From contig NZ_CP186926.1 of the NCBI RefSeq assembly GCF_049554935.1, positions 768,001 through 832,000 of the forward strand: a stretch of 64,000 bases of DNA, given 5' to 3'. A model generated the notes under the pieces. That model did not search any database and was not told the origin of the DNA. It was given only the letters and a program-made list of their open reading frames with translations. Below, piece after piece: positions 11,638-27,282 of the stretch. The stretch's first letter is position 1. The number at the start of each line of letters is the position of its first letter. This DNA comes from Methanocaldococcus indicus (GTDB lineage: Archaea > AGJL01 > Methanococci > Methanococcales > Methanocaldococcaceae). The position numbers and the translations under genes were made by a program.

Positions 11638-13110
11638 GTGAAATTACCTAAAATTATGTTGAAAATTCTACCTGTTATAGTGGGGTATATTGTATTGGGG
11701 ATAGTATTCTCCATTTTAGTTATAAGTTCAGCACCAAATTTGATGAACTATGGTATTATATTTATTATATTATTTATAATTTTTGGAATAATTTCGTTGA
11801 TTTACTTACAAAAAACATTAATAGCTCCAATAGTTAATTTAAGCAAATTTAGCAGAGAAATTTTAGATGGAAATATAGAGATTGATGAAGAAAAAATAAA
11901 AATTAGTAATGATGAAATTGGAGACATTTATAAAGGATTTTTAGAGTTACATAAAAAGCTATATGAATTAGATAAAAAAATAAAAGAGTATCAAAAAGAT
12001 GTTAAATCATTAATTAAAGAAATAACTCAAGTTATGGAAGGTATAGTAAATGGAGATTTAACTGTCAGAATGAATGAAAATAGAAAAAGAAACAAACTTC
12101 AAAAATTAATTAACCAGGCCTTAGATGAATTAGCTAAAATGATTTGCAGTTTAACAAGTGTTGTATTTTTCTTAAAAGAAGAAATTGAAAAAGCAAGAAA
12201 AGAAGTGGAAAGACTACAAGAAGCTTCTGAACAGATAGCAGATGCTTCACAACAAGTAGCTACAGCAGCAACAGACCAATCAACAAAACTACAAGATATA
12301 AGTCAAGAGTTAGAGGATGTTACAAATATAACAAGAGGTGTTTATGACTCTGCTGTTAGTGGAGTTGATGCTGTTAGAGTAGTAGAAGATTCTACAAACT
12401 TAGGTGTTGAAAAGGTTGAGCACGCAATTGAAACAATGCAAAGAATTGCAAACGTTATAGATGAGTTAGGTAGAGCTTTAGAAGAGTTAGGTAGAGAAAG
12501 CCAAAAAATTAATGAGATAACCGCTCTAATTAAAGATATTGCCGAACAAACAGGATTATTAGCATTAAACGCATCTATTGAAGCGGCAAGAGCAGGAGAT
12601 GCTGGAAGAGGTTTCGCCGTTGTCGCAAGTGAAATTAAAGGTTTAGCTGAAGAGATTGGTAAGTCTGTTGATGATATTAATAAAACTATAAGTGAAATAC
12701 AAGAGAAAATTAATAAAACAATTGATTTAGGGTTAGCAGGGAAGGAAGAGGTTGATAAAGGAGTTGTCGCAATTGATGAAGTTAATAATGCATTTATGAA
12801 AATTAAGGAGAGTGTTGATTTAGTAAATCAAAAGATGGAAGAGATAAAATCAGCGGCTGAAAAAGCTGCTGAGAGTATTCAAGCCGCTTTAAGAGATGTG
12901 CAAGATGTCGCTTCTATATCTGAAGAGTTCGCCGCTACCGCTGAAGAATTAACCGCTTCTACAGAAGAATTAAATGCTTCAATAAGTACATTTAGAGAGA
13001 TTATTAGTAAATTAGAAAAAAAAGCCTTAGAAGCTGAGGAATTAAGTAAGAGATTTAAAGTAACATGCTCTTCAAATGTTACTCCAAATGTTACTCAATC
13101 TAAAAATTAA
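11638..13110 (+). CDS. Methyl-accepting chemotaxis protein (2 TM, HAMP, signalling domain)
   Basis: [33 protein letters not shown] hairpin tip. Confidence 0.95.
12248..12978 (+). repeat. Near-identical copy 1 of MCP signalling module
   Basis: Aligns without gaps to 26465-27195 (offset 14217); protein segments are identical in the ORF track. Confidence 0.93.
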
Positions 13111-13287
13111 ATACACATATTCAATATCTTATATAAATCAGTTAAAAAAATTTATTTTAAGTATCATTAAAATACTTTTACCAATGATATTTTTATATAA
13201 CTTATCTTATAATATAAGTTAATTTATTGTAGTTAAAATAGTATTAATGTATAAAATATATAGAAATCTAATGTGTGGGGATATTGT

Positions 13288-14982
13288 ATGAAAAAAATAA
13301 ATTTAATGCCCATCATATTTGCAATTGCCATATTCTTATTTATTTTAGATGGATTGTTGGCTATATTTCTAAAAAATGCATTTATTTCTATATTTATATC
13401 ATTAATTTTTTCGGCAATTTTAGCATTTTCAATTTGTAAAATAATTAAATACAACATTAAAAAACTTGAAGAGTTTTTAGATTTATGTCTAAAAGAAGAT
13501 AAAATAGACAAAGATTTAAAACTTATTGCTGAATTTGACAATATCTATAGAAAATTAATTATTTTAGTTGAAGAATTCCACAAAGAAAGAGAAAAAATAA
13601 AAGAAATGAGTAAAGAAATTTCCCAAACAATTAAAGAAGCTATAGAAGCTTTAGAGAAGCTTGCTGAAGGTGATTTTTCAGTTAGATTAAATGAAAATAG
13701 AAAAAGAAACAAATTTCAAAAAATGTTTAATAAAGCAATTGAGAGAGTATCTAAAATCATTGAAAACATTAGACTGGAAGTTCTTGAATTAAATAGACAA
13801 ATTGAAATATTAAGAAAAGAAACTAAAAAAGCTAAAGAATCAATTGAACAAATATCAGATTCAGCCCAAGAAGTAGCAAATGCAGCAGCTGACCAATCTT
13901 CAAAACTACAAGATATAAGTAGAGAAGTAGAGGAGACAAGTAACTTAGCCAAAAACACAGAGAAGTTATCAAAAGAAGGTGTAGAATTAGCAATTCAAGT
14001 AAATAATAAAGCTGATGAAGGATTAAAGAAAGTAGAGCATGCTGTTGATGCAATGAACAAAATCTCTTCTGTTATTGAAGATTTAAGTAAAGCTATTATA
14101 GAGTTAGGTGAAAAATCTAAAAAAATTAATGAAGTCACTAACTTAATTAGAGATATTGCTAAACAAACAGGACTATTAGCTCTAAATGCATCTATTGAAG
14201 CGGCAAGAGCAGGAGAAGTAGGAAAAGGTTTTGCAGTTGTTGCAAGTGAAATTAAAGGTTTAGCTGAGGAAATTAGTAGGTCAATTGACAACATAAATAA
14301 AATAATTGAAGAAATTAGTGCTCAAGTTGATAAAACTGTAAATTTAGGAACAATAGGTAAGCAGGAAGTAGATAAAGGAGTTGTAGCTGTTGATGACGTT
14401 AATAAAACTTTCTTAGAAATTAAAGAAGGTATATCTCAAACTCTTGAAAAAATAAAAACTATTAAAGAATCAGCTGATAACACAATAGTTAATATGGAAA
14501 AAGCACTTAGAGATATCCAAGATATTGCATCTATAGCAGAGGAATTTACTGCAACAGCTGAAGAACTGTCTGCTATAACTGAAGAAGAAAGAAAAGCTTT
14601 AAATGAAATAGAGAAAGTTATTGTAGAATTAGAAAAAGTTTCCCAATCTGTAAGAGACAATGTAATGAAAATAAAAACTTATAAATCAATAACAGTAGAT
14701 GAAGCATATAAACTACTAAATAATCCTAACTATGTCTTTTTAAATGTTGTTCCAAAAGTTAAATATACTGGAAGAATTCCTAATTCACTATATATTCCAA
14801 TTAATGAATTAAAGGATAGATTAAATGAAATTCCAAAAGATAAAAAAATTATTGTTTATTGTCTAAAAGGATTTACAAGTCCAGCAGGATATAGAATTTT
14901 AAAAGAGCATGGATATGATGTAGTCAATATGGAAGGTGGATTAGAAGCTTGGATGAAAAAAGGTTATCCTGTTGAAGATTAA
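13288..14982 (+). CDS. Methyl-accepting chemotaxis protein with C-terminal rhodanese domain
   Basis: MCP tip motif; the last ~100 aa show [14 protein letters not shown] and MEGGLEAW rhodanese motifs. Confidence 0.92.
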
Positions 14983-16148
14983 AATCTAATATGCTCATAA
15001 ATTGTCTCAGTTTTTGTCATTTTGTATCCAATAACTGCTCCAATTCCAGCAGGAATAGAAAAATCAAAGCCAAAAATCTCTGTGCATAAAACAGATGTTC
15101 CTAATGGTGTATTTGTAGTAGAGGATAAGACAGTAGCAATACCTAAAACTACATAAGGAGCTATATTTTCTACTCCCAAAATATCACCATATAGAGCTCC
15201 TGCAATAGCTCCAATACACATAGCTGGAAAAACTAAACCTCCAGGAGCTCCTGAACCTATTGTAAAAGATGTTGCAAAAATCTTACCTAACAAAAGTATA
15301 AATAAAAATAATAATCCATATTTTATAATAAATAAATTTTTTATTAATTCTAAACCCATTCCCAAGGATTGAGGAGCTATATATCCAATAAATGAAACTA
15401 TACATCCTCCAATAAATAATTTTAAAGTCCAAGGAATATTTATATTTTCAAAATATTTATTTACATTTTTATATACATACATATATAACGTACCAACATA
15501 AGAGAGTAATATAGCTCCAATAACAAAGAAAATAAAATCTTCTGGTTTTAAGTTATAAATAGGGATATAATTTAAAAAATGTCTTTTATGAGTTATAAGA
15601 TAATAAACAATATAACCAACTAAACTTGCTATTATAGCTGGAAATACATCAAAATATCTAAAATCCTCTCTTTCTATTAACTCACATGAAAATATAGCAG
15701 CTCCAAGAGGGGTAGCAAAAGCTCCTGCTAATCCTCCAGAGATTCCTGTTAAGATTACAAGGTCTCTATTTTTTAATTTTAATCCTCTATATATAAAGTT
15801 ATCAGCAAAGCAAGCACTTGCAAATACACAAGTTCCTTCTTTTCCAGCACTACCACCAACTCCTATTATAAAACCAGATAAAAAAACCTTTAAAGCTCCA
15901 AAATACCAGAATAGCTTTTCATTCTCATTTAAAGCTTTTAAAACATAGTTAATACCAGAACCTCTAATTATTGGAAAAAAATCAACAACAACTCCACATA
16001 ACAAGAAAACAACTGGAATTAAATATATATTGTTATGATATGGAAAATTATGAATAATTAATGTTAAAATAATAGAGCTTATTCCTCCAACAATTCCAAT
16101 AATAGAAGCTAAACTAATAACTTTTAATAATTTAATTATATTTTTCAT
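14979..16148 (-). CDS. ClC-family chloride channel/transporter
   Basis: [20 protein letters not shown] and GGLVFP motifs. Confidence 0.9.
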
Positions 16149-20376: not shown

Positions 20377-21078
20377 GAGAGTGTCAAGTTAAGCTTTTAT
20401 TAATAATTGATAAAAAATAATAAAATATGAAGCTCACGATAGAAGTCTTAAAGGAGAGAATCGAAGAGGAGAAGATTTTTAAAAGGAATAAGAAGTCGAT
20501 AGAAGTTAAAATCTTAGCTGGGATTTTGTATTATCTTGGACTATCGTTGAGGAAGGTAAGTTTGTTTCTTTCCCAATTCGAAAGTATAAGCCATGAGTCG
20601 GTTAGGACTTATTATCACAAGATTAAAGATGTTTTAAACGAACCTAAAAGAAAGGAAAGATACGCAATTGCAATCGATGAGACCAAACTAAAGATTGGAA
20701 ATGAAAATATTTACGTATGGTCTGCTATTGATGTTGAATCGAAAGAGTGCTTGGGAGTTTATGTTTCTGAAACAAGAAACTGCCTCGATACTATATTATT
20801 CGTTAAGAGTATATTAAAATTTTGCTCTAATAAGCCGAAGATTTTGGTCGATGGTGGAAGATGGTATCCGTGGGCATTGCAAAGATTGGGTTTAGAATTT
20901 GAAAGAGTCAGATTCGGACTGAGAAATTGTGTAGAAAGCTTTTTCTCACTACTCAAACGAAGAACTAAAGCATTTTATAATAGGTTTCCTAATAACAGCA
21001 AATTCGATACAGTTGTTAGCTGGATTAAAAGTTTCATGATGTTCTACAATTAGTTGAAGTCGTTAACTTGACAGTGTC
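20377..21078 (+). mobile_element. IS6-family insertion sequence, 702 bp
   Basis: Terminal inverted repeats gagagtgtcaagttaa / ttaacttgacagtgtc (14/16 match). Flanking duplication cccacaggt at 20368-20376 and 21079-21087. Confidence 0.95.
20427..21053 (+). CDS. IS6-family DDE transposase
   Basis: IDETKLK, VWSAID, LVDGG.WY and [11 protein letters not shown] motifs. Confidence 0.93.
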
Positions 21079-25452: not shown

Positions 25453-27282
25453 ATGAAATTTTTAATGAACATCTCTATAAAAAAGAGACTTTTGGCTATC
25501 TTTTCCATACTTGTATTAATGTTAATTGGTTCTGCTGCTGTTACTGTTTATGTTCATAATAGTATTAAGCATGATGGTTATATAATAAATATAGCTGGAA
25601 AACAAAGAATGTTAATTCAAAAAATGTCTAAAGATGCATTTATGATTGCTGCTGGATATACTGAATACAAAAAAGATTTAAATGAAACAGCCAAAACCTT
25701 TGATACTGTATTAAATGATTTAATAAATGGAAATCCTGAGAAAGGTATTCCTCCAGCTCCTCCAGAAGTAAAAGAACAACTCTTAAAAGTTAAATCAATG
25801 TGGGACCCATTTTACCAAAATATAAAAATTATCTTAACAAAAAATCCAAACTCTCCAGAATTTAAAAAAGCTTTGGAATATATTAAAGACAATAATATTC
25901 CACTATTAGTAGAGATGAACAAAGCTGTTATGCTATATCAAGATTTATATGAAGATAAAATAGCATTTATAGACCACATAACAACACTATTTGCAATATT
26001 AGGAATAATAATTGGAATTATTGGATTATTTATTGTTAATAATACAATAATAAAACCATTAGAAAAATTAAAAGAAATTACTGAAAAACTTTCTAATAGG
26101 GAGTTTATTGATTTAGACAATAATGGATTTGGTAACGATGAGATTGGAGATATTTATAAAAATGTTTTAAAAATCTTAAACAATATGAAAGAAGATTTAG
26201 AAAAGATTAAAAAACAAGAAGAGAAAATTGAAAACATTCTAAAACAAATAACTGAAATAATGGAAGAAATTGCAAATGGTAATTTATCAAAAAGATTACC
26301 TGAAACTGAGGAAGTATTTAAAGATATAAACAAAGCATTAGATAAATTATCTGAATTAATCAAGGTTTTAAAAGAAAGTATCAAAAAAATAAATGAAGAT
26401 GCTAATAAAGTTGCTGATGAAATTATTAGAGTAAAAGAAGTTTCTGACCAAGTAGCAGATGCAACACAACAAGTAGCGACAGCGGCAACAGACCAATCAA
26501 CAAAACTACAAGATATAAGTCAAGAGTTAGAGGATGTTACAAATATAACAAGAGGTGTTTATGACTCCGCAGTCAGTGGAGTTGATGCTGTTAGAGTAGT
26601 AGAAGATTCTACAAATTTAGGAGTTGAAAAGGTTGAGCACGCAATTGAAACAATGCAAAGAATTGCAAACGTTATAGATGAGTTAGGTAGAGCTTTAGAA
26701 GAGTTAGGTAGAGAAAGCCAAAAAATTAATGAGATAACCGCTCTAATTAAAGATATTGCCGAACAAACAGGATTATTAGCATTAAACGCATCTATTGAAG
26801 CGGCAAGAGCAGGAGATGCTGGAAGAGGGTTTGCTGTTGTTGCAAGTGAAATTAAAGGTTTAGCTGAAGAGATTGGTAAGTCTGTTGATGACATTAACAA
26901 AACTATAAGTGAAATACAAGAGAAAATTAATAAAACAATTGATTTAGGGTTAGCTGGAAAAGAAGAGGTTGATAAAGGAGTTGTCGCAATTGATGAAGTT
27001 AATAATGCATTTATGAAAATTAAGGAGAGTGTTGATTTAGTAAATCAAAAGATGGAAGAGATAAAATCAGCGGCTGAAAAAGCTGCTGAGAGTATTCAAG
27101 CCGCTTTAAGAGATGTGCAAGATGTCGCTTCTATATCTGAAGAGTTCGCCGCTACCGCTGAAGAACTAACTGCCTCAACTGAAGAATTAAATGCTATTAT
27201 TGAAGAGATTAGTAAAGCTACAGACAAAGTCAGAGAAGAAGTAAATAGATTGGCTAAATATGCTGATTCATTTAAAGTATAA
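25453..27282 (+). CDS. Methyl-accepting chemotaxis protein with PilJ/NarX-type extracellular sensor
   Basis: [13 protein letters not shown] after TM1; MCP tip motif. Confidence 0.93.
26465..27195 (+). repeat. Near-identical copy 2 of MCP signalling module
   Basis: Matches 12248-12978. Confidence 0.93.

Follow-up and report, generated by a model that had tools for sequence, protein, structure and literature searches.

Sensor domains of chemoreceptors of the methyl-accepting chemotaxis protein (MCP) type are normally located N-terminal to the signaling domain, as was rightly said in the original prediction for the locus described here, but C-terminal sensors are known as well, namely the CZB domain of TlpD, the hemerythrin domain of DcrH and the PilZ domain of Tlp1. 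In TlpD from Helicobacter pylori, a cysteine of the CZB domain is reported to be oxidized by HOCl, which inactivates the signaling complex (PMC6715182). For DcrH from Desulfovibrio vulgaris it was proposed that the C-terminal hemerythrin domain passes a redox-dependent change on to the methylation region next to it, and in Tlp1 and Aer from Azospirillum brasilense a C-terminal cytoplasmic PilZ domain is described to make the receptor output dependent on a small molecule within the cell (PMC13401364). The window analyzed in this study, a stretch of 64,000 nt from the methanogen Methanocaldococcus indicus (contig NZ_CP186926.1, positions 768,001 to 832,000 of the forward strand), encodes a receptor in which an MCP signaling domain is followed by a C-terminal rhodanese domain with a single invariant cysteine, C525.

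As in TlpD, the putative sensor domain of this receptor follows the signaling domain and its presumed reactive element is a conserved cysteine, which in the case of TlpD is universally conserved and changes the control of CheA upon reversible modification (PMC6715182). TlpD, however, is a soluble protein sensing HOCl by means of a zinc-binding four-helix CZB domain, whereas the receptor from M. indicus is membrane-anchored and carries an alpha/beta rhodanese domain without a metal site. The order of membrane part, HAMP, MCP signaling domain and C-terminal sensor as well as the strictly anaerobic host are shared with DcrH (PMC13401364), which in contrast possesses a di-iron, O2-binding hemerythrin domain and a periplasmic part, in place of a cysteine-based rhodanese and no periplasmic domain. 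Tlp1 and Aer have the C-terminal cytoplasmic domain in common with the receptor, but their PilZ domains bind cyclic di-GMP non-covalently and Pfam recognizes no PilZ domain here. The receptor resembles this CZB/PilZ/hemerythrin group in its layout and is a member of none of them, and the principle of a C-terminal sensor is not new.

The combination of MCP and rhodanese is already catalogued but unstudied. A census of archaeal chemoreceptors lists RHOD under 'Cytoplasmic-C terminal' for Methanocaldococcus bathoardescens, M. infernus and M. vulcanius (PMC9680633, Table S5); this is the same architecture, given as a table entry without comment, and the word occurs only these three times in the supplementary file searched. 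The main text of this census, leaving aside Fig. 4, which may show the domain, does not contain the word 'rhodanese', and its three passages with 'rhod' are free of RHOD, two of them being rhodopsin references (PMC9680633). Apart from the table entry, full-text searches yielded no paper that, judged by title or abstract, deals with a rhodanese-chemoreceptor fusion, and no chemoreceptor described for reactive sulfur.

Our favored, though tentative, interpretation is that the protein acts as a cytoplasmic C-terminal sensor in which sulfane sulfur reversibly persulfidates C525. The reading frame of the receptor spans from 13273 (GTG) or 13288 (ATG) to 14982 on the forward strand, and the translation from the ATG is free of stops. 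Since a G-rich, ribosome-binding-like stretch is found 5′ of the ATG and the orthologues show comparable stretches ahead of the starts chosen for them, the ATG at 13288 was taken as start and the GTG at 13273 was rejected, in agreement with the gene borders assumed originally. Within this one frame, Pfam identified MCPsignal (PF00015, residues 233–414, E 7e-38, 130.6 bits vs. a cut-off of 34.6) and Rhodanese (PF00581, residues 469–557, E 3.9e-15, 56.6 bits vs. a cut-off of 22.2). Beyond these two families the scan at E ≤ 0.01 gave only weak coiled-coil or HAMP matches, among them one to HAMP below the cut-off (residues 109–139, E 0.0074), and no CZB, PilZ or hemerythrin domain. The NCBIfam matches, to named chemoreceptors as well as several rhodanese families, were only partial and below the cut-offs.

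A full-length AlphaFold2 model, based on an alignment of eight sequences and of moderate confidence (mean pLDDT 73.6), contains helices at residues 6–28, 31–70 and 81–126 (with a loop at 71–80), a HAMP connector, two long helices at 142–307 and 309–460 and a compact alpha/beta domain reaching to the C-terminus. Since only two residues separate the two membrane helices, the receptor is predicted to have no extracellular domain. The prediction of two closely spaced transmembrane helices without an extracellular sensor, followed by the MCP domain and a complete rhodanese fold, is therefore borne out by the model, the two Pfam matches and the structural matches described below. At the hairpin tip, a stretch of 14 residues is identical between the receptor, the neighboring paralogue and the orthologues. 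The modeled hairpin arms of about 152–166 residues would, judged by length, be compatible with 22 heptads per arm; for two congeners, 6 of 6 and 4 of 4 MCPs are listed as heptad class 44H, the class typical of archaea (PMC9680633, Table S4).

Full-length matches to the 165-residue tail of the receptor, comprising the end of the hairpin and the rhodanese domain, were present in 7 of the 17 genomes of the genus, the one of the window included, and the fusion is hence not unique to one strain. A stop or frameshift between the two domains was searched for and not found, neither in the seven species nor in the contigs of two independent public DNA runs from a different study. From the chosen starts, the orthologues comprise 556–568 aa and are intact in the six other genomes. 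In the entire class, the fusion is present in 7 of 40 genomes, all belonging to this genus; none of the 23 genomes of the sister family has it. Of the 17 genomes of the genus, 9 have an MCPsignal match that passes the cut-off, so that the fusion occurs in 7 of the 9 that encode chemoreceptors.

For the search beyond the genus, a profile of the last 150 residues was compared with 1.84 billion representative sequences, which gave 28289 matches at E ≤ 0.001, the best 150 of which were examined. When 157 proteins (these best 150 and earlier word-search matches) were searched with the MCP core by phmmer, the fusion was found only in three Methanocaldococcus clusters, the named members with the fusion being Methanocaldococcus sp. 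10A, M. bathoardescens and M. villosus. The same three clusters were the only ones combining PF00015 and PF00581 in word-based searches (8 matches among 881 candidates; best 120 of 2721), and among the matches listed by the ESM Atlas no cluster contained both MCPsignal and rhodanese. These architecture searches cover similar sequences, with dissimilar, independent MCP-rhodanese fusions among the weaker rhodanese matches falling outside their scope. As far as they reach, the architecture appears to be confined to one genus. Outside the clade, the closest relatives of the rhodanese domain do not exceed 77.5 bits, compared to 145–170 for the three orthologue clusters, and the only named one among these relatives, a partial protein, comes from a bacterial metagenome bin.

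A tree of the MCP core alone (residues 150–460), calculated from 56 sequences (the seven orthologues, the paralogue, 46 Methanococcales-type sequences, P0160–P0205, and two Haloferax receptors as outgroup, with the more distant P0206–P0276 omitted), placed the seven fusion receptors in one clade with a support of 0.976. Accordingly, the seven receptors go back to a single, old fusion event, which has since been maintained under purifying selection. For the rhodanese domain, dN/dS values of 0.084, 0.040 and 0.253 were obtained for three close pairs, while dS was saturated in a fourth pair. As a side observation, many of the proteins P0207–P0257 are bacterial chemoreceptors of about 640–670 aa for which MCPsignal alone is annotated, several hundred residues being without a Pfam domain.

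Conservation is distributed very unevenly along the seven orthologues. The mean pairwise identity is lowest in the membrane helices (0.33), equalled by the juxtamembrane segment, and reaches 0.65 in HAMP, 0.67 in the N-terminal arm and 0.76 at the end of the C-terminal arm. With a mean identity of 0.72 and 49 of 102 columns invariant (48%), the rhodanese domain is as conserved as MCPsignal (0.71, 47% invariant). The last 150 residues align in 150 columns without any gap, with M460, I462, K463 and T464 invariant, and the absence of insertions and deletions in the very short linker suggests a fixed geometry between hairpin and rhodanese. C525 is invariant in all seven orthologues, which have no other cysteine in common; in one of them it is the sole cysteine of the whole protein. 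The surrounding loop reads VYC-x-x-GFTSP in all seven, in the variants CLKGFT, CKLGFT and CNMGFT, with Cys, Gly, Phe, Thr, Ser and Pro invariant. Since there is no domain outside the cell, the membrane part evolves fast and the rhodanese domain is the one conserved module besides the MCP part, the rhodanese domain is the most plausible input of the receptor. Such a sensory role would fit both the conservation pattern and the known chemoreceptors with C-terminal sensors.

The last 150 residues were also modeled separately as a fragment (mean pLDDT 82.9, with 88–93 in most blocks of the domain and 75 in one). Compared with solved structures by Foldseek, this model matched rhodanese domains only, with 3tp9 and 3gk5 on top (3gk5: Foldseek probability 1.00, TM 0.83 normalized by target, rmsd 2.0) and, further down, persulfide reductases, CoADR-RHD, CoA-persulfide reductase, a persulfide dioxygenase-rhodanese fusion, Sud and GlpE. 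The same set emerged when solved structures were searched by sequence (3gk5 at E 8.4e-15). Taking sequence and fold together, the best matches include several domains that carry persulfide or polysulfide, namely NADH-dependent persulfide reductase (3nta/4ocg), the persulfide reductase of A. fulgidus (6pfz), CoA-persulfide reductase (8a56), the persulfide dioxygenase-rhodanese fusion (5ve3), the polysulfide-sulfur transferase Sud (1qxn) and GlpE (1gmx). Fold, position of the loop cysteine and loop length are shared with 3nta, 6pfz, 8a56, 3icr and the single-domain protein TVG0868615 (3gk5) at 28–35% identity, and with Sud and GlpE at 23–24%. Unlike the receptor, these rhodaneses are free or fused to redox enzymes, and most of them have DVR and an Arg five positions after the cysteine (Cys+5), where the chemoreceptor fusion has NVV and Thr.

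The motifs YCLKGFTS, including C525, and NVV are present as originally quoted, and both were regarded as altered. The 11-residue loop aligns without gaps on the cysteine-bearing loops of 3gk5, 6mxv, 3tp9, 3iwh and 6pfz, with C525 on their loop cysteine, and these alignments show the loop length of sulfurtransferase-type domains, with Cys and Gly present; loops of the phosphatase and arsenate reductase types are longer, those of phosphatases by one residue. A survey of 479 rhodanese-domain matches from the 157 related proteins found the loop cysteine in 415, of which 211 have Arg and 125 have Thr at Cys+5; bovine rhodanese presumably also has Thr at this position. At the place of NVV, the most frequent triplets among the 479 domains are DVR (172), DIR (27) and SVR (25), NVV not being among the 15 commonest. 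DVR, a motif that is structural rather than catalytic, and Arg at Cys+5 are frequent rather than strictly defining features of rhodaneses, and the receptor has neither. In the orthologues VVP is invariant, preceded by N in six and Y in one. The exchange of DVR for NVV is thus unusual and fixed in the clade, and the replacement of Arg by Thr is real, but since 125 of the 415 cysteine-bearing relatives have Thr there, the latter is a common natural variant and not a sign of decay. The label 'non-catalytic' given to the domain is not supported, because the loop keeps the cysteine, the glycine and the sulfurtransferase-type length, and Thr at Cys+5 is common.

If C525 is the sensing residue, signaling might proceed as follows. 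The two membrane helices would only tether the receptor, while the long hairpin would join the CheA/CheW array, and by the geometry of the hairpin the rhodanese domain would lie where the returning helix ends, adjacent to HAMP and the entry into the bundle. The thiolate of C525 would take over sulfane sulfur from an intracellular persulfide or polysulfide, forming Cys-SSH, and the altered loop would change how the rigidly attached rhodanese domain bears on the C-terminal helix. The packing of the bundle would then shift and the CheA kinase output would change, until thiols or sulfide strip the sulfur off C525 again, with methylation by CheR/CheB/CheD serving as adaptation. Cells would in this way bias their swimming by the load of reactive sulfur. 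The layout of the gene, its intactness, conservation and selection and the occurrence of the chemotaxis genes are established; that C525 is persulfidated, how this acts on the kinase and in which direction cells respond are steps that we infer. That the reversible S-persulfidation of the rhodanese cysteine is itself the chemotactic stimulus, i.e., a covalent sulfur relay for polysulfide or persulfide, is a possible but more doubtful part of this interpretation.

Several observations weigh against sensing of sulfane sulfur by persulfidation. NVV takes the place of DVR, and in the motif that follows GR or GK is found where GH is usual, so the rhodanese domain would represent a divergent subfamily whose chemistry may differ, and the basic residues of the loop vary, the variant CNMGFT having none. 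Two genomes of the genus that encode MCPs, 99% and 86% complete, lack the fusion, which appears to be a dispensable, lineage-limited input and was not found outside the genus in the searches made. Across the seven genomes, neither a sulfur-metabolism gene nor a partner gene is a constant neighbor, and synteny varies. Among the public sequencing runs listed for the locus, none is recorded as RNA. Furthermore, persulfides might not last long in a cytoplasm that is rich in sulfide and strongly reduced.

Rhodanese thiolates are easily oxidized, and the main rival to persulfidation of C525 is an oxidant or thiol-redox switch, which we consider unlikely, though deserving attention. C525 would here be oxidized by oxygenated seawater or peroxide, either to a sulfenate or by forming a disulfide with a partner or a small thiol, and would cause an escape of the strict anaerobe, analogous to TlpD-CZB or DcrH. 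Such a switch shares the anatomy and the conservation with the persulfidation of C525, and precedents are reported both for a conserved cysteine of a C-terminal domain as reversible oxidation switch, in TlpD (PMC6715182), and for a C-terminal hemerythrin receptor of an anaerobe, proposed to serve oxygen avoidance (PMC13401364). The closest characterized relatives, however, act on persulfides and not on oxidants, and the seven orthologues share no second cysteine for an intramolecular disulfide. Nothing in the sequence separates the two candidate signals, sulfane sulfur and an oxidant.

Less likely than the oxidant switch are a docking role and a non-covalent anion or selenium ligand. In the former case, which appears quite unlikely, the rhodanese domain would be a non-sensory appendage for docking, localization or array organization, or a tethered sulfurtransferase, with the input entering via the membrane hairpin or a partner protein. 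The paralogue, which shares the membrane hairpin and lacks any sensor domain, indicates that such receptors can exist without a ligand-binding domain of their own. Rhodanese domains lacking activity are interaction modules in eukaryotic phosphatases, and interaction-only rhodanese domains usually lose the cysteine, whereas the Cys and the whole GFTSP loop are invariant in the seven orthologues of the receptor. The C-terminus of TlpD is described as necessary for polar localization (PMC13001251). Yet the membrane hairpin, as the fastest-evolving part, is ill suited to be a specific sensor, and no conserved partner gene is found nearby in the seven genomes.

The second of these alternatives, reversible binding of thiosulfate, sulfite, selenite/selenide, arsenate or phosphate in the cradle of the loop without sulfur transfer, seems improbable. 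The best NCBIfam rhodanese match of the receptor is to a 'rhodanese-related (seleno)protein', at 38.6 bits, far below the cut-off of 115 bits. Apart from the receptor, the genome has a rhodanese domain only in a split protein, i.e., a 220-aa protein directly following a 223-aa P-loop ORF (L018 534–1872, about 998.8–1000.2 kb), a layout which, we assume, resembles the split tRNA 2-selenouridine synthase of Methanococcales. On the other hand, the loop has the length of sulfurtransferase-type domains, few of its basic residues are fixed and no gene context supports such a ligand. An assembly or annotation artefact, in which a sequencing error joined separate MCP and small rhodanese genes, is next to impossible, since the frame is open in seven species (567–579 aa) and the contigs of the two public runs, matching 14238–15100 with 4 and 14551–15100 with 1 base differences, bridge the domain junction at about nt 14670 without an indel, which rules out a misassembly.

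The coordinates of the receptor gene, its parts and its immediate surroundings are compiled in Table 1.

Table 1. Features of the receptor locus, in nucleotide positions of the window.
Feature	Position	Strand	Description and basis
Neighboring paralogous MCP	11638..13110	+	490 aa, 42% identical, same membrane hairpin, no rhodanese
Upstream intergenic region	13111..13287	+	AT-rich, TATA-like runs, G-rich stretch right before the ATG; promoter candidate
MCP-rhodanese receptor gene, complete	13288..14982	+	564 aa plus stop; ORF listing, translation, Pfam
Membrane anchor	13306..13446	+	Two hydrophobic helices, about residues 7–28 and 31–53, 2-residue turn; AlphaFold2
Juxtamembrane helical segment	13450..13599	+	Residues 55–104; poorly conserved, 0/50 columns invariant, mean identity 0.33
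HAMP-like module	13600..13746	+	Residues 105–153, 15-residue connector; weak Pfam match, helix-loop-helix in model, mean identity 0.65
Signaling hairpin	13747..14673	+	Residues about 154–462, tip near 308; includes MCPsignal, nt 13984–14529
Linker, hairpin to rhodanese	14668..14691	+	Residues about 461–468; ungapped in 7 orthologues, low pLDDT at 460–463 (fragment model)
Rhodanese homology domain	14674..14979	+	Residues 463–564 (Pfam 469–557); Pfam, structure matches, conservation
NVV in place of the common DVR motif	14743..14751	+	Residues 486–488; alignment of orthologues and relatives
Active-site-type loop CLKGFTS with Cys525	14860..14880	+	Cys525 codon nt 14860–14862; orthologue and solved-structure alignments

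The paralogue lies directly upstream of the receptor gene and has no recognizable sensor domain at either end. On its other side, the receptor gene is convergent with a gene for a CLC-type channel. A third receptor with an N-terminal PilJ-type domain is encoded at 25453..27282 on the forward strand, and orthologues of it lie near the fusion gene in L023, L025 and L027, three of the other genomes. The chemotaxis partners are present in the same genome, with a cheW-cheB-cheA-cheD cluster at a distance of about 480 kb from the receptor gene and cheR elsewhere. In two other genomes, the fusion gene is an immediate neighbor of cheB-cheA-cheD, identified as such by Pfam, and a third genome has the same layout as judged by ORF sizes only. 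In L025 (9522–12453, reverse strand), the place of cheA is occupied by two ORFs of 744 and 189 aa, compared to one of about 950 aa, which may reflect a frameshift or a split gene. For one congener, no CheA is listed in the table of the census (PMC9680633).

In three closely related genomes a gene of 292–298 aa is divergent from the fusion gene (L023 10581–11477, L024 6416–7294, L025 6014–6904). The copies in L023 and L024 have weak matches to PP-loop ATPases (QueC or PAPS_reduct) below the cut-off, the one in L025 being assigned by size and position, and a role of this PP-loop-like gene in sulfur transfer is conceivable. Elsewhere in the window, a 208-aa ORF with a DDE transposase domain of the IS240 type (20427–21053, forward strand) adjoins a large DEAD/MZB helicase gene, and the segment 60001–62000 stands out by a G+C content of 0.377, compared to about 0.22–0.34 in the remaining 2-kb windows, and may contain a gene for a structural RNA.

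To our knowledge, it is largely unknown how vent microbes steer in steep gradients of sulfide, polysulfide and oxygen. With one domain, one invariant cysteine and no other sensor, the receptor offers a compact and testable case. Should C525 turn out to be irrelevant, the protein would be just another lineage-specific domain fusion. A sensory function of the rhodanese domain would extend the short list of chemoreceptors with C-terminal cytoplasmic sensing and would add a covalent sulfur switch to the inputs of MCPs. If persulfidation of C525 is indeed what is sensed, the protein would be the first chemoreceptor for which a readout of sulfane sulfur is demonstrated; it would bring a new input chemistry into the MCP superfamily and would imply sulfur- or polysulfide-taxis in hyperthermophilic vent methanogens.

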